A DNA stretch of 52,136 nucleotides. It comes from Chloroflexota bacterium (lineage in GTDB: Bacteria > Chloroflexota > UBA11872 > UBA12225 > JAJDUF01). Each line of letters begins with the position of its first letter. Positions within the stretch are counted from its first letter, which is position 1. The notes under the pieces are model-generated. The model saw only the letters and a list, made by a program, of their open reading frames with translations. It was not told the DNA's origin and did not search any database. The position numbers were made by a program, and so were the translations under genes. Shown here one piece after another: positions 14,275 to 48,661 of this stretch. The stretch spans positions 1 through 52,136 of the forward strand of contig JAJDZR010000271.1 in the NCBI GenBank assembly GCA_022824545.1. The letters are read 5' to 3'.

Positions 14275-14426
14275 GCGCGGTCGGTACTCTCTACCGCCCG
14301 GCGAGGCGGCAGTACCGCAAACGATGGGGTAGACTTGGGCCGCTGGCCCGGGCCAGGGAGACTTGATGAACCACACCGCGATGTGCGGATGCAGTGCCGG
14401 AGATGCTTTCAGTTGGGAGCAGTGAC

Positions 14427-15695: not shown

Positions 15696-16246
15696 ACGTC
15701 ATTGTGATCCCTGAAGACTTTCGCAAGGACCAATACATCCTCAAGCCGCTGTTCTCTCGTCTTTTCAGACGTCTTGGCACCCGTTCCGTAAGAGTTCGGG
15801 TTTGTCAGGACCCTTTGCTTGGGGGTATTGACGAAGCGCTGAAATTGGAGCGCTTGCAGGAAGTCATCGAACGATACCCGATGGTGGATGTTTTCATATT
15901 GTGTGTTGATCGTGATGGAATCGTTCAGAGACGTCAACGGCTCGACCGGATTGAAGAGGAATTCGGATCGTCGTTCTTTGCCGAAAGTGCCTGGGAAGAG
16001 CTTGAGACTTGGGTGTTGGCTGGGCTGGACCTGCCCAGTGAGTGGCACTGGGGCAATGTTCGAGCAGAAGTCGAGGTCAAGGAACATTACTTTGATCCGC
16101 TTGTAGCGCAACGCGGCCTATCCGACTCGCCTGGGGGTGGCCGAAAGGTCTTGGGAGAAGAAGCATCGCGCCGTATTGGTGCTATCCGCCAGAAATGTCC
16201 CGATGATTTTGATGCCTTGGTCCGGCGGCTCGGAGCAGCCGTCTGA
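15692..16246 (+). CDS. Small TOPRIM-like protein (DUF4276-like), partner of the upstream ATPase
   Basis: GTG start overlaps the ATPase stop (GTGA). N-terminal VIVIPEDFRKD (conserved Glu) and FILCVDRDG (DxD) fit a TOPRIM-type acidic site. 184 aa. Confidence 0.65.
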   Translation: MNVIVIPEDFRKDQYILKPLFSRLFRRLGTRSVRVRVCQDPLLGGIDEALKLERLQEVIERYPMVDVFILCVDRDGIVQRRQRLDRIEEEFGSSFFAESAWEELETWVLAGLDLPSEWHWGNVRAEVEVKEHYFDPLVAQRGLSDSPGGGRKVLGEEASRRIGAIRQKCPDDFDALVRRLGAAV

Positions 16247-23970: not shown

Positions 23971-25302
23971 TCACCCCATCGAGGGCCAGTCAAGCATCAG
24001 GACCTGCACCGCCTCATCCTTCTCAATGCGCGTCGTCTGCCGCGGCACGACGACAAGGCCGTTGGCGCGGTGCATGGAGGTGAGAATGCCCGATCCCTGC
24101 TCGCCGGTCAGGTGCGCTATCCACTCATCTCCGTCACGAGTCACGATGGCGCGCATGTAGTTTTCGCGGCCGCTGCGGTTGGAGATGTGGTGCGCCGCCC
24201 GGGCCCGAATGGCGGTCTTGGCCAAGCGTGTGTGGCCGGCTAGTGTGAGGAGGGCCGGGCGCACCAGAATCTCGAAGCCGACCATCGTCGAGACCGGGTT
24301 GCCCGGTAGCCCGATGAACGGCACGTCGAGCAGCATTCCGAAGGCCACCGGCTTGCCGGGGCGCATGTCAATGGACCAGAACGAGACGTCGCCGTCGTGC
24401 GCCAGGATGTTCTTGACCACGTCGTAGTCACCCATCGAGACGCCGCCGGTGGTCACGATCATGTCTGCACGCTGCCCACGTCGCAGTAGCTCGCGCAGGG
24501 ACTCGACCGTATCGGCGGCGATGCCGAGCATGAGCGGCTCGCCGCCGTACCAACGCACCAGTGCCGCCAGCGAGTAGCTGTTGGCATTGCGAATGAGGCC
24601 GGGGGCGAGCGGCCGGTCAATCTCGACCACCTCGTCGCCGGTGGAGAGAATCGCCACGCGCGGTCGCTGTACCACTGCAACACTGCTCCTGCCCAGGGAA
24701 CCCAGCACACCCACCTCGGCCGGGCGGATCACCGTGCCGCGCGCGAGGATCGTGTCGCCTTGACGCTGATCCTCGCCGGCGTGCCGCACGTTATCGTCGT
24801 ACTTGACCGCCTTGAAGACGCGCACCGCACGCTGCGCGGCAATGGCGGTAGCGGCTTCCGCTGCGCCGTGCCAGCCGCCGAACGCCACACCGTCGGTCAG
24901 CTCGTAGGGCACGATGCTGTCGGCACCGGGGGGGAGCGGTGCGCCGGTCAGGATGCGGTAGCATGTGTTGGCCGCTACCGGCTGCTCGGTAGTAGCGCCG
25001 GCCGGCAGCTCACCTAGCACGGCCAGCATCACCGGGCGATCATCGCGGGCTGCCTGGATGTCGGCAGCCCGTACCGCGTAGCCGTCCATCGCCGAGTTGT
25101 CGAAGGGCGGGACATCGTTGGGCGCTACCACGTCCTCGGCGAGCACCCGGCCCAAGGCGTCCAGTATGGGTACGTGCTCCGACGGGAGGGTCGAGAAGTG
25201 GGCCAGAATACGCTCGCGCGCCTCGTTGACGGTCAGCATCAGGTCGGTTGCCGGGCCGGACGGTGCTGCCGGCGGCGGCGCGTTGCCGGTGGTGCTAATC
25301 AT
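23971..25302 (-). CDS. moeA: Molybdopterin molybdenumtransferase
   Basis: LTVNEARERIL, DNSAMDGYAV, STGDEV, TTGGVSMGDYD, PGKP, LPGNPVS. Start at 25302 chosen for the GAGGA SD. Confidence 0.9.
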   Translation of the reverse strand: MISTTGNAPPPAAPSGPATDLMLTVNEARERILAHFSTLPSEHVPILDALGRVLAEDVVAPNDVPPFDNSAMDGYAVRAADIQAARDDRPVMLAVLGELPAGATTEQPVAANTCYRILTGAPLPPGADSIVPYELTDGVAFGGWHGAAEAATAIAAQRAVRVFKAVKYDDNVRHAGEDQRQGDTILARGTVIRPAEVGVLGSLGRSSVAVVQRPRVAILSTGDEVVEIDRPLAPGLIRNANSYSLAALVRWYGGEPLMLGIAADTVESLRELLRRGQRADMIVTTGGVSMGDYDVVKNILAHDGDVSFWSIDMRPGKPVAFGMLLDVPFIGLPGNPVSTMVGFEILVRPALLTLAGHTRLAKTAIRARAAHHISNRSGRENYMRAIVTRDGDEWIAHLTGEQGSGILTSMHRANGLVVVPRQTTRIEKDEAVQVLMLDWPSMG

Positions 25303-25320
25303 CGCTCTTCCTCGGTCGTG

Positions 25321-25360
25321 GGCCTCACCCCCGGCTCCGCTCCACCATGTGGGGAGAGAC
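25321..25360. repeat. Copy of the CCTCACCCCC-headed GC-rich element
   Basis: ggcctcacccccggctccgctccaccatgtggggagag resembles 2114-2163 (gcgcctcacccccacgcccccgctccacctggtggag). Confidence 0.4.
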
Positions 25361-25373
25361 GACGGCTGTCTCG

Positions 25374-27023
25374 TCACTCTGATGGCAGCCGCAACGGCGC
25401 GTCTGGCTGATGGCTGAAAGCTGTCGGCTGAAAGCTGTCGGCTCCTGTGCGGAGCTTCCGCAGGATGTCCCAGTAGGCGCCGCGCGCGCCCTGCCTGATT
25501 TCCTGCACTAGCTCGCTATTGTCATTGTAGTTGTAATTGGCGCCGGTTTCCCCTTTGCGACCACCCACGAAGAAGCGCGCATCGCCACCCACTAGCTCGC
25601 GCAAGTAGTCCACCGCGGCTACGGCGGTCTCCCCGGCCAGGCGGCGCCCTGCGGCTTCGCTCGCGGCCTGCTGCTCGTCCGGGTCAACTGCATGGTCGCC
25701 GAGTGCCGCCGACAGATAGAACACCGGCTCCACGAGGTCATCGTTGCCGGTCAGCACGCCATGCAGGTGCGGATTGGCCGGGTCCAGCCGGCCGTCCCCG
25801 GCATTAAGCGAATCTTGACTGATGGCAGTGCCAGGGTAGAGGCGCACGCCCATCGCTGCGCCAACACAATCCGGCTCCAGGCGCTTCATCAGTTCGATGC
25901 TCTCCCGTAGCGTCTCGCGCGTTTCGCCGGGGCCGCCGAGCAAGAGATCGTACATGAAGGTGAGGCCGGCGCGGCGACAGGCATCGGCCGTGGCGACGAG
26001 CGTATGGACGCCGAAGACGCGGCCCAGCGATTGCAGCATGGTCGGATTGCCGGCATCACCGCCGAAGTTGATCCCCACGCACCCGGCCCGGCGGAGCAGG
26101 GCCGCCAGATCGTAGTCGAAGGGGATCGGCGACGCATAGGTGTACCAACGCACGCGCTCATGTAGGCCATGCTCGATGAGTGCCGTGCATACGGCACGGG
26201 CGTGGCGCCGCGGCAGGTTGAACTCGGCATCGCAGAGGTGGAACGTATCAACGCCGTTGGATAGCAGGGCCTCGATCTCGACCAGCAACGCATCCACCGG
26301 CCGGAGGCGGTAGCGCCGGCCCTTGGCAATCGGGTCCACGCAGTACGTACAGCGCATCGCGCAGCCCCGCTTGGTCTCGATCCCGGCCTGTCCACCTTCA
26401 CGGAAGTAGCGGTCGTGGTCTATCCAGCGTCGCTCCATCATCAGCAGGTCGTCGAGTGGCGCAAAGGCCGGGGCATTGCGCTGCAACCGCACGGTGCGGT
26501 CGGTACCGTTGGCTGCCAGCTCAGGCCACGGCAATGCCCGGCCGCGCTCGTCAACGGCGTAGATCAGGCCGGGTACTCCATCCGGTGGCTGCCCCTGCTC
26601 CAGGGCGTTGGCCAAGGCGACCGCTGCCGTTTCGCCATCTCCGGCGATGCCCAACTGCACTCCCAGGCGCTGCATCACGCCCTCGGGCATGACCGAGAAG
26701 CCCACGCCGCCGAGCACGAGTGGCGCCGACGTGTGCCGGCGCAGTGCGGCGATGACCTCGTGGTAGAGGGGCAGAAAGGACTCTTGGCTGGCAAAGTAGC
26801 AGTCGTCGGTGTTGCGGACGGTCAGTCCGACGAGATCGGGCCCGGGACGACCGGCTGCAAATCGCTCACCAATCGCGCCGACGGCATCGGGCACAAAGCA
26901 CAGGTCGAGCAGTTCGACGTGGTGACCGGCAGCGTCGAGCGCCTGCGCCACATAATCGAGGCCGATAGGCGCCACGGCCGGCTTCATGCGGTTGGCGTTG
27001 ACCAGCAAGACGTTCAATCCCAT
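25374..27023 (-). CDS. B12-binding domain radical SAM protein
   Basis: N-terminal Rossmann-like VLLVNANRMKPAVAPIGLDYVAQAL, then CX3CX2C (GCAMRCTYC). SD ggaggg before the ATG at 27023. Confidence 0.85.
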   Translation of the reverse strand: MGLNVLLVNANRMKPAVAPIGLDYVAQALDAAGHHVELLDLCFVPDAVGAIGERFAAGRPGPDLVGLTVRNTDDCYFASQESFLPLYHEVIAALRRHTSAPLVLGGVGFSVMPEGVMQRLGVQLGIAGDGETAAVALANALEQGQPPDGVPGLIYAVDERGRALPWPELAANGTDRTVRLQRNAPAFAPLDDLLMMERRWIDHDRYFREGGQAGIETKRGCAMRCTYCVDPIAKGRRYRLRPVDALLVEIEALLSNGVDTFHLCDAEFNLPRRHARAVCTALIEHGLHERVRWYTYASPIPFDYDLAALLRRAGCVGINFGGDAGNPTMLQSLGRVFGVHTLVATADACRRAGLTFMYDLLLGGPGETRETLRESIELMKRLEPDCVGAAMGVRLYPGTAISQDSLNAGDGRLDPANPHLHGVLTGNDDLVEPVFYLSAALGDHAVDPDEQQAASEAAGRRLAGETAVAAVDYLRELVGGDARFFVGGRKGETGANYNYNDNSELVQEIRQGARGAYWDILRKLRTGADSFQPTAFSHQPDAPLRLPSE

Positions 27024-27163
27024 GGCCGGCCCTCCAGTGGTGCCGCACCTCGCGGTGTCGTTGTGCCATGACTCGGTAGGCTGATGGTACAGTGAGGATA
27101 GCAGCCTGTGACTACTGAGAGACCAAGCACGCAATGTAGGACGTACCTACCGGGAGGCAAGCG

Positions 27164-36857: not shown

Positions 36858-37691
36858 ATGGCGGGAGAGTTGCAGCGCCCGATTATCGGCTATGGCCGCA
36901 CGGCGGACATCTATCGCTGGTCCGCTACCGAGGTACTGAAGCTCTACCATGCAGACCGGCCACCCGACTTGGTGGATCGCGAATGGCACAGCGCCCAACG
37001 GGTCCAGGCCCTGGGACTGCCGGTGCCTGCCGTCGTCGGGCAGCGCCGGGTAGACGGGCGGCGCGGCCTCATTTACCGGTACATGGCGGGGCCAACGATG
37101 CTGCAGCAGTTCGGCAAGACGCCGTGGCGGGTGCTCGGTTTGACCCGCCGGTTTGCCGAGCTACACGCTGCCATTCATCAGCATACGGTCGCAGACTTGC
37201 CCTCCCAGCGCGAGCACTACGCTGACCTGATCCGGCAGACAACAGCCATATCGAATACAACGAGTGCGGCGGCCTTGGCAGTGCTCGAATCGCTGCCCGA
37301 CGGCACGCAGCTATGCCACGGCGATTTCCACCCGGACCAGATTATCCTGACCCCTCAGGGACCGGTGATTATTGACTGGCTGACGGCGTGCCGCGGCAAT
37401 CCTCTCGCCGACGTGGCCCTGACGGCATTGATTCTGGAGGTCGGGAACCCACCGGCCGGCCGGATCAGCGGCCTCCTCGTGAGGCCGGCCCGTAGCATTG
37501 CCCGGTCGCGGTATCTGCACTGGTATGCCACTATTACGGGGGCAGATCGGGAACAGCTTGCGGCCTGGCAGCTACCCATCGCCGTCGTCCGCCTCAGCGG
37601 GAACTTCCCGGGCGAGGCCGCGCGCTTGCTGTCCCTGATCGGCAAACTGGAAGCGCAGCACGCGGTCTATACGAGGAGGAAGGGCAGATGA
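36858..37691 (+). CDS. Phosphotransferase family protein (APH/choline-kinase-like)
   Basis: LCHGDFHPDQIIL (Brenner-type HxDxxxxN region) and IIDWL. The track ORF from 36738 reads through the repeat cluster. Confidence 0.75.
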   Translation: MAGELQRPIIGYGRTADIYRWSATEVLKLYHADRPPDLVDREWHSAQRVQALGLPVPAVVGQRRVDGRRGLIYRYMAGPTMLQQFGKTPWRVLGLTRRFAELHAAIHQHTVADLPSQREHYADLIRQTTAISNTTSAAALAVLESLPDGTQLCHGDFHPDQIILTPQGPVIIDWLTACRGNPLADVALTALILEVGNPPAGRISGLLVRPARSIARSRYLHWYATITGADREQLAAWQLPIAVVRLSGNFPGEAARLLSLIGKLEAQHAVYTRRKGR

Positions 37692-39007
37692 GCAACGTGC
37701 CGATGACCCGGCCGGAGGAGCTGTTGGCCCTCCACGAGACGCCATATTTTCATTCCTCGACCTTCACCGAGCTTGACGACGGTCGCATTCTCCATGCGGC
37801 GGGCACGACTTTCACCACGTCGGACGATGGCGGTATCACCTGGTCGGAGCCGTTCGAGCGTCGCGATACCGACGGCGCTCCCGTCGGCGGGAGCGGGACC
37901 TCGCTCGTGCGGCTGTCGGGCCGCGGCGTGGGCCTGCTATCGCTGCGGCAGGACGCGGAGGAGTCCCGGCGCGGCATTCACCACCTGGTCTTCTGGCGCT
38001 CACCGGACGGCGGCGAGACTTGGGAGCCTCCGGTGCAGGTGACCCCGCCCGGTCTCCCGGCGCACGCCTACCAGGACGTGCTGCTCCGCACGTCGTCGGG
38101 CCGCATCATCGTGCCGGTCTACGGGACGCTCGGTCAGCGGGCCGGTCCGGGCGACGTGCGGCCGCCCTTCTCCGGCAAGCTGATCGGTGGGCAGTGGGTT
38201 TCGACGGCAGCGCACTTCTTCGATCCGCGGTTCTCGTTTGTCTACGTCTGCTACTCCGACGACGACGGCCGCACGTGGCGGCGCAACGGGGACGGCGAAC
38301 TGATCATCCTCCACGACTGGAATGCGACCTACAGCTACGTCAACGAGCCGAGCGTGGCCGAGGTCAGCCCCGGCCGCCTGCTGATGGTGATGCGGACCGG
38401 GCTGGGCCGGCTGTTCCAGTCCTGGTCGGAGGACAATGGCGAGACTTGGTCGCGGCCGGCGCCGACATCGCTCGCCGCGACGACCACGCCGGCGCAGATT
38501 CGCTCGATCCCTGCGACCGGGCACCTGCTCATCGTCTGGAACCAGGAGACGGAGGATGAGGTCAAACGCGGCTACAACCGGACGCGCATCTCGGCGGCGA
38601 TCAGTCGGAATGGGGGCAGCGTCTGGGAGTTCTTCCAGAACGTCGAGTCCATCCATGAGACGACGCGCGTCGAGCCAGGACCGATCCAACCCGTGCGGCC
38701 GGCCGAGTACTATTTCATGCCGGGCGTGGCGGCGCCGGAGCGGGAGGTCGAATATATCACCGAAGACGCCAGCTACGGCCGCTGGTCGTATCCGTCGGTG
38801 TTCGTCGGCCGGGACCGCGTGCTCATCGCGCACAGCTATACCACGATGGACGAGCATCCTACGCGCGCCGAGTTGATTGATAGCAAGTCCAAGCCGGGCG
38901 GCTTCAGCCAGAAGCTCAAGGTACTCCCGCTCACCTGGTTCTACGGTGGCAAGGAGCCGGCCGACAATCCGTTCATACCGCGCGCGGAAGAGCCGGCGAC
39001 GCCGTAG
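37688..39007 (+). CDS. BNR/Asp-box repeat protein (sialidase-like beta-propeller), no signal peptide seen
   Basis: Five Asp-boxes: SDDGGITW, SPDGGETW, SDDDGRTW, SEDNGETW, SRNGGSVW. ATGA overlap with the upstream gene. Confidence 0.8.
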   Translation: MSNVPMTRPEELLALHETPYFHSSTFTELDDGRILHAAGTTFTTSDDGGITWSEPFERRDTDGAPVGGSGTSLVRLSGRGVGLLSLRQDAEESRRGIHHLVFWRSPDGGETWEPPVQVTPPGLPAHAYQDVLLRTSSGRIIVPVYGTLGQRAGPGDVRPPFSGKLIGGQWVSTAAHFFDPRFSFVYVCYSDDDGRTWRRNGDGELIILHDWNATYSYVNEPSVAEVSPGRLLMVMRTGLGRLFQSWSEDNGETWSRPAPTSLAATTTPAQIRSIPATGHLLIVWNQETEDEVKRGYNRTRISAAISRNGGSVWEFFQNVESIHETTRVEPGPIQPVRPAEYYFMPGVAAPEREVEYITEDASYGRWSYPSVFVGRDRVLIAHSYTTMDEHPTRAELIDSKSKPGGFSQKLKVLPLTWFYGGKEPADNPFIPRAEEPATP

Positions 39008-39041: not shown

Positions 39042-40730
39042 ATGGTGAAAATGAGCGGAGGCGAAGCCCTCGTGAAGTCCCTCGTCAGGGAAGGCGTGGA
39101 GGTCGTATTCGGGATTCCAGGGGTACAGCTGTACGGGATCATCGCCGCGCTACGGGATGAGCCGGGCATCCGCATGGTCACGACCCGCCACGAGCAGGCC
39201 GCGGCATACATGGCCGACGGTTATGCTCGTGCATCAGGAAAACCGGGAGTAGCGCTGGTGGTGCCGGGCACGGGGCTGTACAACGCTGCCGCCGGCCTAG
39301 CCACGGCCTACGCCCGCTCCTCGCCCGTGCTCCTCATTGCCGGCCAGGTCCCGCGCGGCCTGATTGGCAAGAACCTCGGCCCCCCTCACGAGATTTCGGA
39401 CCAGCCGGATGTGGTGCGCCCCGTGACCAAGTGGCGGCGGCGGGCGCTCAGGCCGCGGGAGATACCGGAAGCGGTGTTCGAGGCGTTCAGACAGCTACGT
39501 ACCGGCCGGCCGCGTCCCGTGCTGATCGAGGTCCCGCCCGAGGCTGGGGTGGAGCGGGAGGAAGTCGAGCTGCGGAATCCGGCTCCGGTCTCGCGCATTG
39601 TGCCCAGCCCGGAGCAGCTGCGGGATGTCGCCCGTGTCATTGCCCAATCGCACCTGCCCCTGATCTACGCCGGCGGCGGCGTGGCGCGCTCAGACGCAGA
39701 ATCGGCCCTGGTCAAACTGGCTGAAGCGACAAACATCCCGGTAATCACGTCCAGCGGCGGCAAGGGCACCATGCCGGACAGCCATCCGCTGTGTTACGGC
39801 TCCTGTTTCAGCCCGCGGGGCGAGCGGCAGGAGATGAACCAGTTGTATGAAGTGATGGAATCTGCCGACGTCGTGATCGGAATCGGCACCCGTTTTTCGC
39901 TGGGCAATCCGGCCGGCGAGGCGTCCACGTTGGTAAACATCAACATAGACGACACCGAGCTGACAAGAGTCCAATCCAACACCATCCCCCTGCATGGCGA
40001 CGCCAGAGCGACCATTGAGGCTCTGCTGCCCTACCTTATCGAGGCCGGGGTGGGCGAGCGCCCATCGCCCGTCGAAGCGGTCAGCGCGGCACGGCGCCTG
40101 ATTGCCTACTACGACATCAGGCTCAAGGAGCCGCAGTACCCGATTCTGGAGACAATCCAGCACAGCATCCCGGAGGACGCTTTCATCGTCTGGGATGTCA
40201 CGCAGTTCGGCTACTACGCCCGCACTCACTACCAGGTTAAGCACCCCAAGACGTACATAGATTCCGGCTATTCGTTCAACCTTGGCTATTCATTTCCGAC
40301 CGCGCTGGGCGTGAAGGTGGCGAAACCCGACCGCCCCGTGGTATGCATGGTCGGAGACGGCGGGTTCATGTTCAACGCAGTTGAGCTTTCCACGGCGGTC
40401 AAGTACGGGATCAATGTCACGACCGTCGTCTTCAGGAACGACGCCTACGGCAACGTTGCCAATGACCTGAACGAGGTGTTTGACGGAGCTTACGAGACCG
40501 ACCTGCACAACCCGGACTTTGTCAAGTTCGCCGAGTCATTCGGCGCAGTCGGCCTACGGGCCGACGACCCCATGGACCTGGGAACGCTGATCCCGCTTGC
40601 GCTGGAGCGCCAGGCACCGGTGCTCATTGACGTACCCTTCGGAGATATGCCCATACCACGCGCCCCGCAGATGGCGCCTTACTATGCGCTGCCCTGGACC
40701 ATGCCCCAGGAAGGGCTGATCGAGTCCTGA
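39042..40730 (+). CDS. Thiamine diphosphate-dependent enzyme (acetolactate synthase large-subunit-like)
   Basis: GGEALVKSLVREGVEVVFGIPG, HEQAAAYMADGYAR, GDGGFMFN ThDP motif. Confidence 0.9.
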   Translation: MVKMSGGEALVKSLVREGVEVVFGIPGVQLYGIIAALRDEPGIRMVTTRHEQAAAYMADGYARASGKPGVALVVPGTGLYNAAAGLATAYARSSPVLLIAGQVPRGLIGKNLGPPHEISDQPDVVRPVTKWRRRALRPREIPEAVFEAFRQLRTGRPRPVLIEVPPEAGVEREEVELRNPAPVSRIVPSPEQLRDVARVIAQSHLPLIYAGGGVARSDAESALVKLAEATNIPVITSSGGKGTMPDSHPLCYGSCFSPRGERQEMNQLYEVMESADVVIGIGTRFSLGNPAGEASTLVNINIDDTELTRVQSNTIPLHGDARATIEALLPYLIEAGVGERPSPVEAVSAARRLIAYYDIRLKEPQYPILETIQHSIPEDAFIVWDVTQFGYYARTHYQVKHPKTYIDSGYSFNLGYSFPTALGVKVAKPDRPVVCMVGDGGFMFNAVELSTAVKYGINVTTVVFRNDAYGNVANDLNEVFDGAYETDLHNPDFVKFAESFGAVGLRADDPMDLGTLIPLALERQAPVLIDVPFGDMPIPRAPQMAPYYALPWTMPQEGLIES

Positions 40731-40761
40731 GACGCTGCGTCCCTGCCCTTATGTCTGTGGA

Positions 40762-41247
40762 TTAGGATGGCGTCGCGTCGCCGGCGCGGACGGCGCGGAG
40801 GGCCGTGGCGATGCCTGCCGTGTCCAGGACCATCTCGGAGATGCCGACCTCCTGGGCATACACCTCCGGTGGGACCTGCGTGGCAATCTCCGGCTCGGTG
40901 ATGTGATACACCGGCAGACCCAGGGCCGTGCCGGCCAGCGCGCCGGCCCACGCCGGGTCGCCCTCGGTTACCGTCAGGCCATAGACCTGACTGCTTTCCG
41001 CGTTCGGGGTCCCGAGGAGCACCACCACCTCGTCGCGGCCTACGTCGTCAACGACCCGCTTGATGTTCTGTTGACCATCCAGGTCAAGCGCTCCGGCGGA
41101 CGTTCAGACGAAACAGTAGGTGTCCTCCAGCACCACGTCCGCCCCGGCGCCGCGGGCACAGGCGGCGATGGCCGGGCCGGGCACACCGTCGCGCTCACCG
41201 AGCGCCACTACCTTCTTCCCCGTCAACGCAACCTCGCTTGTTGCCAT
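40762..41247 (-). CDS. grdA: Glycine/sarcosine/betaine reductase complex selenoprotein A; in-frame UGA (Sec) at 41104-41106
   Basis: From the ATG at 41247 (SD AGGAGGAAGG): [61 protein letters not shown], joining the track ORF 40762-41028 in frame. The CxxU motif is as in GrdA. Confidence 0.9.
41057..41090 (-). promoter_or_regulatory. Candidate SECIS stem-loop downstream of the grdA UGA
   Basis: mRNA CGCUUGA CCUGGAUGGUCAACAGAACA UCAAGCG, or an inner UUGACC-UGGAU-GGUCAA hairpin, beginning about 14-19 nt after the UGA. Confidence 0.35.
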
Positions 41248-41280
41248 GTCACCTTCCTCCTGCGCCGTATTGTGAGCAGA

Positions 41281-42741
41281 CTACGTTCTACGTTCAAGTA
41301 CGAAAGAGAGGCCGTCGGCCATCTGGGTCATGCGGCCGAGAAACAAGCTCCCCTTAGCTAGGAACATCACCCGCTGTAGCGTCCCCGCAGTCATACCGGC
41401 GATGGCGTGACCGAGGTATGGCACGGCTGAGGCAATGTGCCCTTGGGTCGGCGCGAAGCCCGGCATTCCGTGTGCTTCCACAAAGTCGGGGATGGCCTCC
41501 CGTTGCAGCTCGCCGTTGACTGTCGCCAAGGCGCCGATCAGCCGATAGTTGAGCAGGGGCACATTCCCACTGCCGGCCGGCTCGGTAATCTCCGGGTCGT
41601 GTAGCTCGGTCGCGTAGCGGTCAATCGCATCGAAGCGCCAGCCGAGCCGCTGCAACGGTTCAGCGACCAGTGCTTGGAAGATGGCCTGCTGGGACGCGCC
41701 GGCACTCACCGGATGCTTGCCGACGCTATCGAGACGCAAAACCGGGCTATGCCCATCGTCGGCGCCAACGAGGATAGCAACGCCGGCGAGTACATCCTCT
41801 AGGATCGGCTGATCGTGCTTCAGATGCCCCAAGAACTTCATGCCCAGCTTTGCCAGCGAGCAGCCGCCGACAACGGCTACCTCGCGGAACAGGCCCGACG
41901 CCACCAGCCCGGCCGCGATGACGAGCGCATGGACCGGACCGCAGCAGAACGCCTTCACGTCGGCGCCAGTGGCCTGCAGGCAGCCGGATAGCTCGCCGAC
42001 GGCTTTGGCCAAGTTGCCGCCGCCACGCTGATAGCGGTCACCGACGGCCTCCTCGCCGCAGTTAATCAGGTACTCCACCTGATCCGCCGGTACCGGGCCG
42101 GCGTGCAAAAGTGCGCGCAAGGCCAGCACGGCCGTTGCCTTGCAGGTGAGGTTTTCCAGCAGTACGTCTGCCGAGAGTGAGGTGTCCTGGTCGTGATCGC
42201 TGCGGATGCAGCCCACCAAGCGTCCGTCACCCAAGATCAGCGGTAGTGCCGACTCGGATTGCTCGATGCGCGACAAGGGCCGCCCGGTGCCGAGGCGGTC
42301 GAGATCGTCCGGCGTGATGAGGGGGTGCTGACCGAGGATGGTCCGGACCTCCTCGGTGAACTCCTCGGAGAGGGTCACGAGGTTGAAGTCGTCGGCGACC
42401 TTGAGGAAGCCGTAGAACGGCGTTTCATCCAGTAGCTCACCGAACGGGCCACGGAAAGACCGGTCCGGGCCAACGGGCGGCGCCTCGGCCTGTGAACACC
42501 ACCACGGCCGCTCCAGCGCCCACAAGTCCTCGGGCCGGCGAGCGCCGAGAAAGACTTGATGCGGTGGATAGGCCGCGGCCTCGTCGAACGAGCGCAGCCG
42601 CGCCCCCAGCTGCTCACGCAGCGCCGCGTCTCCCGGCAACTCGCGCACGGGCTTGGAGCCGTACTGCACCAGGCCGGGCACGTGCGCCAGCGTATAGCGC
42701 ACGTCTTTGATGACTACTCGGTTCGTGGTCAGTTCTGACAT
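41281..42741 (-). CDS. grdC: Glycine/sarcosine/betaine reductase complex component C, beta subunit-like
   Basis: VIKDVRYTLAHVPG..., LRSFDEAAAYPPHQVFLG, INCGEEAVGDRYQRGGGNLAKA resemble GrdC. Sits between grdE and grdA. Confidence 0.7.
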   Translation of the reverse strand: MSELTTNRVVIKDVRYTLAHVPGLVQYGSKPVRELPGDAALREQLGARLRSFDEAAAYPPHQVFLGARRPEDLWALERPWWCSQAEAPPVGPDRSFRGPFGELLDETPFYGFLKVADDFNLVTLSEEFTEEVRTILGQHPLITPDDLDRLGTGRPLSRIEQSESALPLILGDGRLVGCIRSDHDQDTSLSADVLLENLTCKATAVLALRALLHAGPVPADQVEYLINCGEEAVGDRYQRGGGNLAKAVGELSGCLQATGADVKAFCCGPVHALVIAAGLVASGLFREVAVVGGCSLAKLGMKFLGHLKHDQPILEDVLAGVAILVGADDGHSPVLRLDSVGKHPVSAGASQQAIFQALVAEPLQRLGWRFDAIDRYATELHDPEITEPAGSGNVPLLNYRLIGALATVNGELQREAIPDFVEAHGMPGFAPTQGHIASAVPYLGHAIAGMTAGTLQRVMFLAKGSLFLGRMTQMADGLSFVLERRT

Positions 42742-42813
42742 CGCGTTCAGTCGGCAGCGAGGCAGCGCCGGGCCGGGGATAGGTCTTCCCGGTCCTGCAG
42801 CGCCGCTCGCTGC

Positions 42814-44103
42814 TCACGCCTCCAGGCCACTGTAGCGGTTGAAGCCGTAATGGTCGTCGTAGCGGCGGGGCGGCTCCAAGGGGCCGGCGGTGGGAACCTG
42901 CTGATCGCGCAAGCGGCCGATGACCCGCCGGTCCGAGCCGATGACCCGCTCCACGGGCGGCAGGGATTTGAGGTCGGTGAGGTCGTTGTAGATGAAGCCG
43001 GTGCTGACGATGGCATCGGCCTCCGGGAGCGGCTCCAGCAAGGTCGGCACGCCGCCGGCAGAGGAGTCTTCGCCGGTCATGAACACCGTCTTGATCCCGA
43101 GCTGCTCGCACGCCTGCACGGTGCGAATCACCTCGATGAACTCGTTGCCGCCGGCGTCCCACGTGACCAAGGCGCCCTGCGCGTCCAGCATACGGGCCAT
43201 CTTGGCCGCCTGGTTGGCCATCAACTGCTTCTCGTGCTGGGTCGTCCACTCGGTCCGGAAGGCGATCACGCCGAGGAAGTTGAGGTCTACGCCGTGTCGC
43301 CGGTAGAGTTCGCGGAGCACCGGATTATTCATCACGGTCCAGGACATGGCAAACGGCGACCGATAGGGGCCGGTGACTGCCCCGTCGAGCACTTCGTTCG
43401 GATGTAGCAGCCAAGGGGGCGTCAGGTGCGTCAGGCCGTAGGTGGCGGTACACCAGGTCGTGGGCGAGCCGGACATCGCCTGCGGTGAGTGCAGGCACCA
43501 GATGTAGACGACGCGGGGCAGCGCCGGGTCCACCGGCGGTAGCTCGTAGACCTCTTGCTCCGACGGCTCCAGGTCCTTGGTGGTTGCTGCCAGCCGATCT
43601 GCGACAGTCAGCACGGCAGCGTGTACCGCTTCGTTCTTGGCGTCGTTGCCGAGTGCCGGGTCCGGCTCGACGACCACGCAGAGATTCAGTAGCGATGCGA
43701 TGGGGAGGCGGTCGGCCCACGGGCCGGACATGTCAATGAAGACCTCGACGAAATCGCCGCCGGCCTCGTGCCAGTTCACCTCCGACACTTCGGCAACGCC
43801 CATGCCGGTGAGCCGGTGCGTGCGTCCCTCGCCGACAGTCTCGATGGGCCGACCGCAGACCCCAGGGTAGGCCACGCCGGCGCCCGCAACCTTGATGCGC
43901 GGCTCGACAACATCGCGCAGCGGCCAGATGCGGACCGATTCGCCCGGCCGCGCCAGCTCCAGGTCCACCGTAGCGATGCGTGGATCGGCCCGCACCGCGG
44001 CGAGCAGCTCATCGCGATTCACTTCCAGCAGCCCATCAGACCAGCGCGTGTGGGCGCCGAATTTGATGTCATGCACCGCGAAGGTTCCTAGCTCAAGACG
44101 CAT
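42814..44103 (-). CDS. grdE: Glycine/sarcosine/betaine reductase component B alpha/beta proprotein homologue (GrdE/GrdG/GrdI family)
   Basis: MRLELGTFAVHDIKFG...VDLELARPGESVRIWPLRDVVEPRIKV matches the GrdE N-terminus. SD GGAGGTG. The ATG at 44103 overlaps the grdB 3' end by 11 nt. Confidence 0.8.
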   Translation of the reverse strand: MRLELGTFAVHDIKFGAHTRWSDGLLEVNRDELLAAVRADPRIATVDLELARPGESVRIWPLRDVVEPRIKVAGAGVAYPGVCGRPIETVGEGRTHRLTGMGVAEVSEVNWHEAGGDFVEVFIDMSGPWADRLPIASLLNLCVVVEPDPALGNDAKNEAVHAAVLTVADRLAATTKDLEPSEQEVYELPPVDPALPRVVYIWCLHSPQAMSGSPTTWCTATYGLTHLTPPWLLHPNEVLDGAVTGPYRSPFAMSWTVMNNPVLRELYRRHGVDLNFLGVIAFRTEWTTQHEKQLMANQAAKMARMLDAQGALVTWDAGGNEFIEVIRTVQACEQLGIKTVFMTGEDSSAGGVPTLLEPLPEADAIVSTGFIYNDLTDLKSLPPVERVIGSDRRVIGRLRDQQVPTAGPLEPPRRYDDHYGFNRYSGLEA

Positions 44104-45454
44104 GTCCCACCTCCGCTTCCGCTGCGACTTCATCCAGGTCATCCGGGTCGAACAACGTCGGACCGCTCACGTCGGTCTGCAACGCGCGGAGGGCCGTCTG
44201 CACGATGCGTAGTCCGTAAGCGAAGTCCTTCTCCGGACCGAGGTTGGGATCGCCGCAGACGTGCTCGATGCGGGCGCCCCGGATGACCCGGTTGGCGCCG
44301 GTCGTGAGCGGGAGACCGTGAATAGCGGAGATCATCGCCACCGGGATGCCGTGCCGTTCGATTTCCTTTGCCATCGTTGCGCCGCAACGATTACAGGTCC
44401 CTCAGGTGGCCACTAAGAAGCAGCCGTCGGCACCGCCTTCGCGTAGCTCAGTGCCGAGCTGGTCGCCGAAAGCCTGGGACTTGTCAACGGGCGTCGCCAC
44501 GCCGGGCATGGTGAAGAGGTCGGGAAAGACGCCGCCGATGACGCCTTCCGCTTCAAGGTAGCGGAGATGGCGTAGGGGGCAGATGTAGTTCGGGTTCTCG
44601 CTCGAGGTACCGTTGAAGTAGCCGCCGTGGAAGGCTTCCCAATCGTCGGGAGTCAACGTGAACCGGCCCTCGACGGAGTAGCGGTAGTAGCGGTGCGGAT
44701 TGCCGTTGAGCTGCCGTTCGGGGTTGCCCTTGGGGATCAGCCCGCCGGTACTCACCAGGGCGATCTGCGCGCTCCGCAGGTCGGCGATGGGCGCCGCCGG
44801 TACCACGCGCTCCGGCACTTGGATCGGCACCTCGGTCTGGAAGGGCTGGCCGTTCAACTTCGCCACGAGCATGTCGAGCGCCCGCTGGTAGCCTGGCGCT
44901 TCCCGCTGGCTGAACACCCGCAATCCGCGCGGCAGGTAGCTCTCCGCCGCGGCCGGTCCCAAGTCCTCGCCGCGCCCGAGCTTCAGCGCGAGGCGCGCCA
45001 TGGCTGCCAGCGCCGCTTGCATGTCCAGCGGCCTATCGCTGGTCGGCACGGCCACCATATGCAGGCGCTCCCCGGCCAAACCGGGGTTTTCCGGGTACAT
45101 GCCGGTCACGGCGGGAATGCCTAGCTCGTGCGCGATCCGGCACACCAGACTGCACGCGAGGCCGTAACGCCCGGCATTGAACGCCGGCCCGGCGACCAGC
45201 ACGTCCGGCTGCCACTCGGTCAGCGCCGTCCGCAGCGCCGCCTGCGCGGCATCGCCCTCCTCGTTGACGTAACTATCGCCGCCGATCAGCGTAGCGACGA
45301 TGTCGCCTTGGCCAGCGAGTTGGACCTGCAGGGCGCGACCGGGGCCAGCCGCGCCCGCTCGCGCCTCGACCGGATGACCGGCCTGCTCCTCACCGCCGAT
45401 CCCGGCAAAGAACTGGTTCAGGTAATGGACGACGCGCACCTTGGTATCAGTCAT
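44093..45454 (-). CDS. grdB: Glycine/sarcosine/betaine reductase component B selenoprotein (GrdB/GrdF/GrdH family); in-frame UGA (Sec) at 44402-44404
   Basis: VRVVHYLNQFFAGIGGEE...CFLVAT-U-GTCNRCGATMAKEIERHGIPV. Track ORFs 44402-45508 and 44093-44374 are in the same frame, separated only by the TGA and 9 sense codons. Confidence 0.9.
44373..44391 (-). promoter_or_regulatory. Candidate SECIS stem-loop 10 nt downstream of the grdB UGA
   Basis: mRNA AUCGUUGC-GGC-GCAACGAU, an 8-bp perfect stem with a G-rich apex. Confidence 0.45.
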
Positions 45455-45618
45455 GTACGCACTCCCTTGCCCACGATTCACCATTGGGTCCTGGTGGGTG
45501 TGTCTCAACTACCGGCGCCTGCCGGTGAATATTCTACTGGAATCGACACCCGGCACACAGCGTAAGGGACATGCCCGCTGTAGAATCCGGGCAGCAACAC
45601 GACGCTACGAGGCAAGCG

Positions 45619-46887
45619 ATGACTGATGGCACCATGAGCCGCGCCGCACTCACTCCCCACGCCGCGCCGCTGGCGCAGGACTATACAGTGGTGCGGCACA
45701 TTGCCGATCCCGATGTGTTCACGGCAACGCCAGCACTGCTCCGGCTATCCAGCGGCCGGCTGTTATGCAGCTTTTCGCTGGTGACGCGGGTCGGACGGGC
45801 GCCGGGTCACCCGGAGCGGGCGCTGGGGACGTATTTCTATACGAGCGACGACGGCGGTCGGACGTGGGAGGAGACCGGATCGGTAGCCCTCGACGACGGG
45901 CTGGTCTTCATTCACCGCGACCGGCTGTATCTGCTGTGCAACCGGCCGGGCCGCGGAGACATCGTGGTGACGGCCAGCGATGATGAAGGCGCGAGCTGGC
46001 GGGAGCCGGTGACGCTGTTTGCGGGGCGCTTCTGGAATACGTTCACGCCCCATGCCGTTCGCGACGACACCTTGTACTGGGCGTTGGGGGCGCCGAATGC
46101 CGGCGGCAACTTCAATCGTACCGGATCGCGGATCGTCGTCGTGGCCGGTGACCTGGCAGCCGATGACTTGCTGGACCGGTCCCGCTGGCGGATTTCGCCA
46201 TATCTCGCATACCCTGGCACACCGGCCGGCCTCAGCGCCGGGCTACGCGATGACGTCGCGCAGGGCGAGGTGTATCCGGCCGACGGTGATGATCTGGTGA
46301 CATCGTTTCCGGGCCGGCCAGCGGACCACGGCGATCACTGGCTGGAGCCGAACGTCGTCAACGTCAACGGCCGCATCCGCGTTTTCGTCCGGCTCCGCAT
46401 TGACCGCCAGACGACCGCGCACCTCTGCGCCGTGTGTGACGTGGCCGACGACGGCGAGGAGATCGAGCTGCGTTTTACGCAACTTCATCCGTTGCCAGGC
46501 AACTGCTACTTCCACATTATCCGGGATGAGCCACAAGGATACTACTGGGCAGCAACCAGCCTGCCGACGCGCACGCAGGACCTGGAGTGGGGACGGGAGA
46601 TGGCGGCGCGGGGGCTGCTGAAGGGACGCGCCGGCAACGAGCGCCGGTTTCTGATGCTGATGTATAGCCTGGACGCGCTGAACTGGTTTCCGGCCGGCTG
46701 TATTGCCATGTGGCCCAGCCCAGGACAGGGCTTCCAATACAACGCGCTCCTCGTTGACGGAGATGACCTGCTGGTGTCGTCGCGCACCGCGAAAAACGCG
46801 CCCAATCAGCATGACAACGATCTGGTGACCATCCACCGTGTCCGCGATTTCCGCGCGCTGGCGCTGAACCTCCATCCGGTAGTCTGA
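45619..46887 (+). CDS. BNR/Asp-box repeat (sialidase-like) protein; start uncertain (45571 or 45619)
   Basis: Asp-boxes TSDDGGRTW and ASDDEGASW. GAGG 6 nt before the ATG at 45619. Confidence 0.7.
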   Translation: MTDGTMSRAALTPHAAPLAQDYTVVRHIADPDVFTATPALLRLSSGRLLCSFSLVTRVGRAPGHPERALGTYFYTSDDGGRTWEETGSVALDDGLVFIHRDRLYLLCNRPGRGDIVVTASDDEGASWREPVTLFAGRFWNTFTPHAVRDDTLYWALGAPNAGGNFNRTGSRIVVVAGDLAADDLLDRSRWRISPYLAYPGTPAGLSAGLRDDVAQGEVYPADGDDLVTSFPGRPADHGDHWLEPNVVNVNGRIRVFVRLRIDRQTTAHLCAVCDVADDGEEIELRFTQLHPLPGNCYFHIIRDEPQGYYWAATSLPTRTQDLEWGREMAARGLLKGRAGNERRFLMLMYSLDALNWFPAGCIAMWPSPGQGFQYNALLVDGDDLLVSSRTAKNAPNQHDNDLVTIHRVRDFRALALNLHPVV

Positions 46888-46908: not shown

Positions 46909-47550
46909 ATGTACATCCCCAAGGCATTCCAAGTGTCGGACAGTCGAGTGCTGGCGGAGTTCATCGCCAGCAACAGCTTTGCGACGCTCATCAGCTCAGT
47001 GCAGGGCAGCCTTTTCGCGACCCACTTGCCGCTGATCCTCGAACAGTACCGATCATCGCCGGGAATGCTCCTGGGACACATGGCCCGCGCTAATCGGCAC
47101 TGGCGCGCATTCGACGGGCAGCAGGAAGCGTTAGCGATTTTCCACGGGCCTCACGCTTACATTTCGCCGAGTTGGTATGCCTCGTCGTCACCGGCCGTAC
47201 CCACATGGAACTACGCTGTAGTGCATGTGTACGGTGTGCCGCGCGTCGTTGCTGACGAGCAATGGCTCTCCGACTTTGTTGATCGGTTGGTGAGCATCTA
47301 CGAGGCCGACAAGCCGCGGCCATGGCCAGGGATACTGCCCGCAGACCTCAGAGCCAGCCTCTTGACATCCATCGTAGGCTTTACGATGGACATCACGCGG
47401 GTTGAGGGCAAGTTCAAACTCGGCCAGAACCGGTCGCTCGACGATCAGCGTGCAATGGTGCAGCATCTTGAGGCACAGGCGGATCCAGTTGCCCAGGTGC
47501 TAGGGAAACTCACGAAGCAGCGGTTTAACCAGCACGCTCAGACTGGCTAG
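46909..47550 (+). CDS. paiB: FMN-binding negative transcriptional regulator, PaiB family
   Basis: MYIPKAFQVSD...FATLIS...ATHLPL, YISPSWY, KFKLGQNR are PaiB signatures. Confidence 0.85.
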   Translation: MYIPKAFQVSDSRVLAEFIASNSFATLISSVQGSLFATHLPLILEQYRSSPGMLLGHMARANRHWRAFDGQQEALAIFHGPHAYISPSWYASSSPAVPTWNYAVVHVYGVPRVVADEQWLSDFVDRLVSIYEADKPRPWPGILPADLRASLLTSIVGFTMDITRVEGKFKLGQNRSLDDQRAMVQHLEAQADPVAQVLGKLTKQRFNQHAQTG

Positions 47551-47987
47551 GGTAACGCTTCAGGTGTGAGCACGGTCAACCCGTACTGGGCGAAGTGGCG
47601 GTCGAAGGCCAAGGCGTGAGTAATCCCCAGGCGCTCCATCACCGCAAAGCTGGTGGCATCCGTGAGTGAGAAGCCCTTATCTGCGTACTGAAAGATAATC
47701 GCCATGGCGCGCTGCTCGTCAGCGACCGTGACTCGCTCGATCCGCGTGGTGCTCTGGGACAGTTGCCGCAGGAAGGCGGTCGCATGGGGCTGGCCGAGGC
47801 GGGACAGAAAGAGCGCGTGTGTTTCGGCGATAATGAAATTCGTGGTGACGGGTAGCCAGTAGTGGTCGGACAGCCACGCCCAGCACGTGCGGGCCTCCTG
47901 GTAATGGGCATCGCGGGGTTGAATCAGCGCCAAGAAGCCGGAGCTATCCAGAAACACCCGATGGGAGCCGGTCGTGGTGATGCTCAC
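47547..47987 (-). CDS. vapC: PIN-domain VapC toxin
   Basis: VFLDSSGFLAL, IIAETH, SLTDATSFAVMERLGI, AFDRHF. GTG start overlaps the antitoxin stop (GTGA). Confidence 0.85.
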   Translation of the reverse strand: MSITTTGSHRVFLDSSGFLALIQPRDAHYQEARTCWAWLSDHYWLPVTTNFIIAETHALFLSRLGQPHATAFLRQLSQSTTRIERVTVADEQRAMAIIFQYADKGFSLTDATSFAVMERLGITHALAFDRHFAQYGLTVLTPEALP

Positions 47988-48277
47988 GGCTGGGGTGTAT
48001 ATGCCTCCGCTAAGTACTCGTGCTTCTTGGCGGCATCCGTGGGCGGCGCATCCGTCGCGGAGCCGACAAGCTCCCAGAGCGGATCGTCCCTGGTAAGCGG
48101 TTGGTCTTCACGGTGAGCAGGCGGTGCCACTGCGACCTGATAGCGCGTGCCGCTACGCTCGACGATGACCGGCTCGCCTTGAATAGTGAGCCGATCCAGG
48201 ATCGCCGCGGGATCGCGTACAAACTCCTCAAAGGGAATGGTCGTGTGGGTGGGCTGCGCTGCGCTCGCCTTTTGCAT
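47984..48277 (-). CDS. Type II antitoxin (Phd/YefM-like) of the adjacent VapC
   Basis: MQKASAAQPTHTTIPFEEFVRDPAAILDRLTIQGEPVIVERSGTRYQVAV. Start chosen at the internal ATG, 6 nt after a TATAAT box. Coordinates follow the ORF track frame. Confidence 0.7.
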   Translation of the reverse strand: MQKASAAQPTHTTIPFEEFVRDPAAILDRLTIQGEPVIVERSGTRYQVAVAPPAHREDQPLTRDDPLWELVGSATDAPPTDAAKKHEYLAEAYTPQP

Positions 48278-48283
48278 AGGACG

Positions 48284-48289
48284 ATTATA
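48284..48289 (-). promoter_or_regulatory. Extended -10 promoter (TGcTATAAT) 6 nt upstream of the antitoxin ATG (leaderless-type)
   Basis: Minus-strand sequence atgcTATAATcgtcctATG. Confidence 0.4.
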
Positions 48290-48379
48290 GCATGATGCCG
48301 GCGCGGGCGCACTGCCGGCTATCGTTGGTCGCTGGGTTGCGTATGTTACACTGGGGAGCGAAGCGAATACGGTAGGTGT

Positions 48380-48661
48380 TGACGAGGACACGTCCTGGTC
48401 CGGTGGCGCGGCAGAGAGGGGAGGCCACCGGCTGCAAGCCTCCCATGGAGATGAGGCCGGGATACCGCCTCCGAGCCGGTCGGCTGAAGGCGAGCGGTCC
48501 GCGCTAGAGCGGAACGGCGCTGCTGCGTAAGCCGACCCCGGTGGCTCTGGATAGCAGCCGGCGAGTGCGCCACGCTTGCCCGGCCGGGCAGTGCGGCGAA
48601 TTCGGGTGGAACCGCGCGAGGCCGTGCCTCCCGTCCCGAAAGGGCGGGGGGTGTTTTGTTT
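48380..48661 (+). promoter_or_regulatory. T-box riboswitch leader (tRNA-Thr sensing) upstream of thrS
   Basis: T-box core AAUUCGGGUGGAACCGCG at 48599-48616. Terminator cctcccgtccc-GAAA-gggcgggggg at 48627-48651 plus tgttttgttt. AGAGA-containing stem upstream. ACC (Thr) codon candidates at about 48426 and 48463. Possible promoter TTACAC-N16-TACGGT at 48346-48373. Confidence 0.7.

Follow-up and report, generated by a model that had tools for sequence, protein, structure and literature searches.

The 52,136-nucleotide contig JAJDZR010000271.1 of a sponge-associated Chloroflexota bacterium (the window, by which this whole stretch is meant) harbors four closely packed genes on the minus strand at 40762-45454, which are arranged in the order grdB-grdE-grdC-grdA and encode a Grd-type enzyme system with two selenoproteins. 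It forms part of a large and conserved branch of Grd-type selenoenzyme systems that has so far gone undescribed. On balance, it probably encodes a reductase that depends neither on GrdD nor on a pyruvoyl cofactor and that would cleave a substituted acetate without Schiff-base formation, with glycine betaine or another onium-acetate as the leading guess for the substrate. Textbooks treat reductases of the Grd type as enzymes of strict anaerobes that ferment amino acids, for which their value lies in the acetyl phosphate and ATP obtained via GrdD. Here, a strongly conserved, selenocysteine (Sec)-dependent four-gene version without GrdD or a pyruvoyl site is encountered in lineages that are usually regarded as aerobic.

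Organization of the grd cluster

The cluster and its upstream region comprise the following features:

44093-45454, minus strand: grdB-like gene for selenoprotein B, 453 aa with Sec351; TIGR01918 and PF07355
42814-44103, minus strand: grdE-like gene for the unprocessed-type alpha subunit of protein B, 429 aa; PF09338
41281-42741, minus strand: grdC, 486 aa, ketoacyl synthase III (KAS III)/thiolase fold; NF040746
40762-41247, minus strand: grdA for selenoprotein A, 161 aa, Cys45-x-x-Sec48; NF040748 and PF04723
45455-45570, no strand assigned: intergenic region between divergent genes, upstream of grdB; presumably holds the promoter, without riboswitch

The NCBIfam and Pfam matches bear out the gene identities and the B-E-C-A order that had been proposed in an earlier note made by eye from the bare sequence. 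GrdA scores 186 bits on NF040748 (cut-off 130) and 183 bits on PF04723 and keeps the CxxU motif (YCFVU), while the 486-aa middle protein is indeed GrdC, with 606 bits on NF040746 and thus above the equivalog cut-off of 450. The GrdB-like protein reaches 364 bits on PF07355 and 405 bits on the TIGR01918 subfamily of glycine/betaine/sarcosine/proline selenoprotein B (cut-off 65), and it retains the UxxCxxC motif (UGTCNRC). The alpha subunit matches PF09338 with 295 bits.

A ribosome-binding site (AAGGGAG) lies 8 nt ahead of the grdB ATG. The ATG of the grdE-like gene (44103) is preceded by GGAGG and lies within an 11-nt overlap with the 3' end of grdB, and the gaps between grdE and grdC and between grdC and grdA amount to merely 72 and 33 nt. 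Because of this close spacing and overlap, the four genes look like a single, intact operon of the expressed type, grdB-grdE-grdC-grdA. Promoter and terminator consensus scans were uninformative, as shuffled sequence scored equally well, and the window contains no tRNA genes. The sole Rfam match at E<=1 within 40700-45700 is SECIS_4, a selenocysteine insertion sequence (SECIS), and hence the earlier note was right in seeing no glycine riboswitch.

As likewise anticipated there, grdD, grdX and thioredoxin genes are locally absent. Pfam scans of essentially all long open reading frames (ORFs) of the 52-kb window gave no match to PF02504 (GrdD/PlsX), GrdX or thioredoxin, and tblastn with GrdD, GrdX, TrxA and TrxB of Acetoanaerobium sticklandii retrieved nothing at E<=1e-2 from the window and 57 related loci, which were read with approximately 10 kb on each side of the cluster. 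The flanking genes are as described in the note, i.e. a convergent gene for a thiamine diphosphate (ThDP)-dependent enzyme (39042-40730, plus strand) and a divergent gene for a BNR_2 protein, which starts at 45571 or at Met17 (45619, plus strand).

Selenocysteine codons and functional integrity

Both selenoprotein genes carry an in-frame UGA that is followed by an RNA hairpin:

44402-44404, minus strand: in-frame UGA of grdB (Sec351); read-through joins two ORFs and gives the motif LVAT-U-GTCNRC
44364-44401, minus strand: SECIS hairpin of grdB; Rfam RF01990 SECIS_4, 50.7 bits (gathering score 38), E 4.7e-10
41104-41106, minus strand: in-frame UGA of grdA (Sec48); read-through gives 161 aa with YCFV-U
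41071-41087, minus strand: SECIS-like hairpin of grdA, UUGACC-UGGAU-GGUCAA, which begins 17 nt past the UGA

The grdB element spans the 38 nt directly 3' of its UGA. The grdA hairpin stands out by its conservation: the string CTTGACCTGGANGGTCA[AG] is invariant, synonymous sites included, among 35 distinct grdA sequences that stem from several phyla, and its frozen synonymous positions use CTT and GGT, codons that are unusual for these GC-rich genomes. Invariance at synonymous positions points to an RNA structure within the coding region.

Two in-frame TGA codons and a missing grdD could also be taken as signs of a decaying remnant in which the stops are real and the genes are pseudogenes. This reading is effectively refuted and deserves hardly any residual credence. 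The UGA/Sec codon is kept in 53/53 GrdB-like genes of related loci and in all 37 related grdA genes, the UGAs are followed by SECIS elements, and dN/dS against three related metagenome-assembled genomes (MAGs) ranges from 0.06 to 0.13 for every gene of the cluster, before as well as after the UGAs. All four genes are thus under strong purifying selection. Metatranscriptome contigs from sponge and marine samples that are 90-97% alike span parts of grdB, grdE and grdC, which provides weak but consistent evidence for transcription of the clusters of relatives. In some long-read MAGs (loci L046, L055 and L033), grdC, grdE or grdB appears as split or frameshifted tblastn segments, which are probably assembly indels rather than pseudogenes.

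Distribution and conserved architecture

The closest genome loci were found in eight Chloroflexota MAGs with an alpha-subunit identity of 93-96%, and 97-99% of the sequence words sampled from the region are present in two sponge metagenome runs. The Chloroflexota origin suspected in the note is therefore confirmed, with a sponge metagenome as the source. More distant relatives of the alpha subunit (58-74% identity) occur in SAR202/Dehalococcoidia, Candidatus Entotheonella/Tectimicrobiota, Rokubacteria/Methylomirabilota, Binatia, Acidobacteriota, Nitrospinota and others. Throughout the 57 related loci, the gene for the alpha subunit, whose homologues have 429 aa like the subunit of the window, always follows grdB, and grdC and grdA are found beside this pair, either downstream on the same strand as in the window or as an opposite-strand grdC-grdA unit. 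The gaps between the grd genes of relatives contain unrelated ORFs. Clustering of all ORFs from these loci revealed no further neighbor shared across lineages, and hence the four-gene set is the unit. It is a module conserved over at least six phyla. The description of the cluster as minimal and reordered consequently holds for the layout, not for the peculiarity of this one genome that it implied, since the same architecture is conserved across a large multi-phylum clade.

Variation around the four genes is restricted to individual lineages. Some SAR202 loci contain two or three pairs of grdB and alpha-subunit genes around one grdC-grdA pair, which mirrors the situation in clostridia, where proteins A and C are shared among several substrate-specific B proteins. 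The paralogous pairs of three such loci (L012, L014 and L025) are 41-49% identical to the pair of the window; Sec is present in all of them, and their scores stay below every known equivalog cut-off. A gene for a UGSC-family (seleno)protein lies near the SAR202 paralogues (L012:13005-14360). In one SAR202 subgroup, deacetylase-like genes, a GMC oxidoreductase and a Dpp-type ABC transporter are encoded near the cluster. An EVE-domain gene is located directly downstream of grdA at L018:13505-14005 and in eight other Entotheonella/Binatia loci; the window has no such gene.

SAR202, sponge Chloroflexota, Entotheonella and soil Rokubacteria are globally abundant and usually regarded as aerobic heterotrophs. 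Together with an O2-dependent PhyH-type dioxygenase encoded in the window, these known lifestyles make it plausible to call the host an aerobe. Literature searches about grd genes of SAR202, sponge symbionts, Entotheonella and Rokubacteria turned up no description of the clade, and a paper on the Olavius symbiont proved to have no bearing on it. Public annotations name its genes glycine, sarcosine or betaine reductase; these labels are without support.

Protein B lacks the pyruvoyl site and falls outside the known classes

In glycine reductase, the alpha subunit of protein B is a proprotein. The pair Cys242/Cys246 is required for its autocatalytic processing to a pyruvoyl group, while GrdI and the fluoroacetate reductase subunit FarE lack both cysteines and are not proproteins (PMC10838667). 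The segment DGAILSGN-C242-VSA-C246-DKNPTY of A. sticklandii GrdE aligns with DGAVTGP-Y247-RSP-F251-AMSWTV in the window, where the following codon marks the cleavage position:

43363-43365, minus strand: Tyr247 codon of the alpha subunit, aligned to the pyruvoyl precursor Cys242 in GrdE from A. sticklandii

The loss of the autoprocessing cysteine, which the earlier note could only suspect, is thus borne out by the alignment, and no member of the clade has a cysteine at either cleavage-site position. As both cysteines are replaced, the alpha subunit of the window is not a pyruvoyl proenzyme and is unable to form a Cys-derived pyruvoyl group. On the GrdG model NF040793 it scores 230 bits (cut-off 780), compared with 666 bits for a true GrdE and 345 bits for GrdI, and is therefore further from GrdE/GrdG than GrdI is.

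The note had reasoned that a missing cysteine would point toward a betaine-type, GrdI-like enzyme. GrdI carries Phe at the Cys242 position, yet a search of 1.84 billion representatives for the PF09338 family argues against such a shortcut. Among the 241 clusters obtained at E<=1e-30, a cysteine occupies the cleavage column in 9/115 full-length representatives, all nine of which group with GrdE/GrdG, and the commonest residue of this column is Tyr or Phe. Unprocessed alpha subunits hence constitute the majority of PF09338 diversity and are not diagnostic of betaine specificity. The selenoprotein likewise fails to support a GrdH-type assignment with 328 bits on the GrdH model (cut-off 775). It remains far under the cut-offs of the GrdB model TIGR01917 (382 vs. 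602 bits) and the GrdF model NF040794 (420 vs. 800 bits) as well.

Phylogenetic trees are in line with these scores. Rather than joining GrdB/E, GrdF/G or GrdH/I, between which the note had proposed to decide, the window subunits stand apart from all three: for both alpha and beta, 100/100 neighbor-joining (NJ) bootstraps set the characterized references apart, as one group, from the window clade and from the SAR202 paralogues. The B proteins of the window thus fall, as judged from their sequences, outside the glycine, sarcosine and betaine enzymes (GrdE/G/I and GrdB/F/H). This is also reflected in diagnostic motifs. The published signatures of GrdB (AHGGxD[QTAP]..RV[IL]PxD..TxGNxTxV; PMC9751293) and GrdF (IHGGYDR..TTGTGT; PMC9751293) are both absent from the selenoprotein of the window, which displays the segments FHGGYFNG, NPNYICPLR, MPGVATPV and LVATUGTCNRC instead. 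The corresponding clade pattern reads [FY]H[GA]GY[FY]N, NPNY[IV]LPL, [LM]PGV[SAG]TPV and LVATUGTCNRC. The Asp of the HGGxD motif, which is common to GrdB, GrdF and GrdH, is lost in the clade, and the Ser of the S-T-U motif is Ala in the window protein (STUG to ATUG). A sequence search of the PDB with the alpha and beta subunits returned no relative.

A distinct type of GrdC

The confident AlphaFold model of the GrdC of the window (predicted local distance difference test score, pLDDT, 89.5; predicted template modeling score, pTM, 0.92) finds its best structural matches among KAS III-type enzymes, i.e. FabH, OleA, PqsD and priming ketosynthases, with a probability of 1.0. These enzymes hold acyl groups on a cysteine equivalent to Cys266 of GrdC. 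This residue is part of a cysteine pair in the active site:

41941-41946, minus strand: Cys266-Cys267 codons of GrdC, Cys-Ala in classical GrdC

For a systematic comparison, 43 clade-type proteins were set against 68 classical ones (from the reference loci L059, L061 and L062 and 80 metagenome loci found through GrdD):

GrdC residues 266-267: Cys-Ala in 68/68 classical proteins; Cys-Cys in 37/43 clade proteins
GrdC residue 294: Gly in 68/68 classical proteins; Cys in 40/43 clade proteins
C-terminal tail past the SFVxE motif: at least 34 aa in classical proteins; 3-19 aa in clade proteins
grdD in the same locus as grdC: 68/68 classical loci; 0/43 clade loci

That GrdC itself differs, by Cys-Cys, Cys294 and the lack of a tail, had escaped the earlier note; it constitutes the strongest argument for a truly dispensable GrdD. 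The last row has to be read with care: the complete grdD linkage of the classical set is circular because these loci were reached through GrdD, which counts against its use as evidence for GrdD independence. The sequence differences between the two sets, as they emerge from the alignment, are not circular. When metagenome contigs of the Joint Genome Institute were scanned for GrdD, the best 80 loci were all classical, low-GC clusters, and the scan is therefore uninformative on distant GrdD forms.

Comparison with known systems

Four reference loci (L059 to L062) were available for comparison. The classical operon of A. sticklandii (L059) is organized as grdX-trxB-trxA-grdE-grdA-grdB-grdC-grdD. 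Its glycine reductase shares the Sec positions and the SECIS type with the window, with identities of 44% (A), 42% (B), 34% (alpha) and 43% (C). In contrast, the gene order of the window differs, GrdD, GrdX and the thioredoxin system are missing, the equivalent of Cys242 is lost and the GrdB motif fails. The sarcosine genes of Peptoclostridium acidaminophilum (L060) are arranged as grdG-grdF, and a Photobacterium cluster (L061) reads trxB-trxA-grdA-grdA-grdC-grdD-grdE-grdB.

The betaine reductase GrdH/GrdI of P. acidaminophilum and Enterococcus gilvus is represented by a cluster on the E. gilvus plasmid pCR1A that was named by the Prokaryotic Genome Annotation Pipeline (L062; trxB-trxA-grdA-grdC-grdD-grdI-grdH-BCCT). 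It resembles the window in its two-selenoprotein A/B/C logic, in the UxxCxxC and CxxU motifs and in an alpha subunit that carries an aromatic residue in place of the cleavage cysteine (Phe in GrdI, Tyr in the window). However, the proteins of the window are not orthologous, HGGxD is changed to HGGY[FY]N and STUG to ATUG, the cluster lacks a linked BCCT/OpuD transporter, grdD and trxAB, and its GrdC differs by Cys-Cys, Cys294 and the absence of the tail.

The fluoroacetate reductase FarBE of Cloacibacillus porcorum also employs a protein-B pair with an unprocessed alpha subunit that feeds the common GrdA/GrdC machinery, and it extends the Grd family to non-amine substrates (PMC10838667). Unlike the selenoprotein of the window, FarB is reported to lack CxxC (PMC10838667). 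Moreover, the far operon of this anaerobic Synergistota host includes an antiporter and an Fe-S oxidoreductase that are absent from the window. D-Proline reductase PrdA/PrdB, a selenoenzyme that cleaves a C-N bond, comprises only distant alpha/beta homologues (window scores of 67/300 for PrdB and 29/700 for PrdA). Prd uses neither GrdA nor GrdC and has no acyl intermediate (PMC10298544).

Putative mechanism and substrate

In glycine reductase, a carboxymethyl-selenoether is formed on protein B, the carboxymethyl group is transferred to the Sec of protein A, phosphorolysis gives acetyl phosphate, and thioredoxin re-reduces A (PMC10298544). Measured against this established scheme, the A, B and C-beta parts are intact, while the window and the 57 related loci lack the C-alpha subunit as well as the Schiff-base cofactor. 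A plausible reaction sequence would start with protein B, i.e. the GrdB-like protein and the uncleaved alpha subunit, binding an alpha-substituted acetate whose leaving group does not need Schiff-base activation. Sec351 may then attack C2 and expel the leaving group, before Sec48 of GrdA takes over the carboxymethyl group. Upon closure of a Se-S bond by Cys45 of GrdA, the C2 unit would become an acetyl thioester on Cys266 of the FabH-like GrdC, and a housekeeping thioredoxin system, assumed to be encoded elsewhere, could re-reduce GrdA. Without GrdD, GrdC itself might release the acetyl group to coenzyme A (CoA), phosphate or water, and its extra cysteines may substitute for the GrdD cysteine in this step.

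Glycine and sarcosine are unlikely substrates. As a leading guess, motif composition and habitat suggest glycine betaine or a related onium-acetate: the aromatic-rich motifs, i.e. [FY]H[GA]GY[FY]N in protein B and Tyr at the cleavage position of the alpha subunit (Phe in GrdI), would fit a trimethylammonium or sulfonium group bound through cation-pi interaction, and the sponge, marine and soil habitats are osmolyte-rich. The most specific version of this proposal, according to which (micro)aerobes use a di-cysteine, tail-less GrdC without pyruvoyl group or GrdD, possibly release the C2 unit to CoA, and thereby cleave onium- or other substituted acetates, is tentative and as a whole somewhat doubtful.

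Several observations weigh against a GrdD-independent, betaine-cleaving reductase. The GrdH score of the selenoprotein is below its GrdF and GrdB scores, and no transporter or catabolic gene is consistently linked to the cluster among the neighbors in related loci. The trees are NJ trees that include a small number of references and lack a PrdAB outgroup. The metatranscriptome contigs are low-depth assemblies from relatives that may contain DNA. Finally, the absence of grdD refers to the window and the flanks of about 10 kb, and P. acidaminophilum offers a precedent for dispersed genes, with a grdE-A-B locus (L058) apart from grdC-D.

This last point lends some weight to the idea that the same subfamily, with a non-glycine substrate, still produces acetyl phosphate with a GrdD encoded elsewhere in the genomes, all the more as the thioredoxin genes are unlinked likewise. 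We nevertheless regard a remote grdD as unlikely, albeit worth keeping in mind: of the 43 loci, from several phyla, that have grdC linked, not one has grdD, grdD directly follows grdC in every classical locus examined, and the loss of the tail together with the gain of Cys267 and Cys294 in the clade GrdC is what would be expected upon a change of partner. Somewhat less probable still is a substrate that is neither amine nor onium, such as a halo-, thio- or otherwise substituted acetate that is cleaved in a FarBE-like fashion for detoxification or scavenging. Sponges are rich in halogenated metabolites, FarE is unprocessed too, most of the PF09338 diversity lacks the cysteine and is uncharacterized, and the clade has lost precisely the Asp that the three amine-specific B proteins have in common. 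Yet the alpha subunit gives only 147 bits on the FarE model (cut-off 675), the CxxC missing from FarB is kept, no dehalogenation or export genes are linked, and the very high conservation across marine and soil phyla rather suggests a ubiquitous substrate.

It is quite improbable that the cluster merely represents a divergent lineage of ordinary glycine or sarcosine reductases, in which the carbonyl cofactor is made in another way and grdD and trx lie elsewhere. Public annotations of clade members point in this direction, GrdA and GrdC pass their equivalog models, and the best overall NCBIfam matches of the B proteins are GrdF and GrdG. However, both cleavage-site cysteines are absent, and the Ser of the S-T-U motif, which has been proposed as an alternative carbonyl source (PMC10838667), is Ala in the window. 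In addition, the GrdB and GrdF motifs fail along with the loss of the HGGxD Asp, the scores lie far under the cut-offs, and the clade stands outside both GrdE/G/I and GrdB/F/H.

If betaine-like osmolytes were indeed cleaved by the GrdD-independent system, it would represent a methylamine source that has gone unrecognized and would add a selenium-dependent step to the cycling of carbon and nitrogen in marine and sponge settings. A class free of GrdD and pyruvoyl would also extend selenium-dependent osmolyte or C2 catabolism beyond anaerobic Stickland fermenters. With a different substrate, the system would widen the range of reactions of the family, just as FarBE has done with fluoroacetate. 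In either case, Cys266-Cys267, Cys294 and the missing tail offer a defined handle on the working of protein C.

Genomic surroundings

The junction between grdA and the ThDP gene is a short 31-nt stretch in the window (40731-40761) and carries insertions of 2-7 kb in relatives, among them a complete type I restriction-modification system (hsdR, hsdS and hsdM) between grdA and the ThDP gene of a related MAG (L001:13397-19267). It thus appears to be a variable insertion hotspot. The ThDP enzyme of the window (39042-40730, plus strand) is nearest to the uncharacterized PRK08266 group with 532 bits (cut-off 571), followed by 5-guanidino-2-oxopentanoate decarboxylase as the next-best match. A clear PRK08266 member (801 bits) is encoded right after grdA in an unrelated Deferrimicrobiaceae locus (L041:4460-6022). 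The adjacency of ThDP enzyme and grdA may reflect a functional link or chance; as a clue to function it was dropped, because the link with grdA is too sporadic.

Two paralogous BNR_2 (sialidase-like) proteins without NCBIfam match (37688-39007 and 45571-46887, plus strand) bracket the ThDP-grd block, and the window additionally encodes a sulfatase, two CN-hydrolases and the above-mentioned PhyH dioxygenase. Such a set is typical of sponge-symbiont catabolism. At 23971-27146 (minus strand), a B12-binding radical SAM enzyme adjoins MoeA; its best match is tryptophan 2-C-methyltransferase with 291 bits, which is under the cut-off of 500.

Two further regions are reminiscent of defense or toxin-antitoxin modules. 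At 14394-15695 (plus strand), an AAA_21/AbiEii-like ATPase is followed by an overlapping 184-aa ORF without family match, and this region (14394-16246) may be a defense or toxin-antitoxin module. Likewise, the gene for a PIN-domain protein (47547-47987, minus strand) shares 4 nt with the 135-aa ORF upstream of it, which has no Pfam match (47984-48391), and the pair (47547-48391) looks like a toxin-antitoxin pair of the VapBC type.

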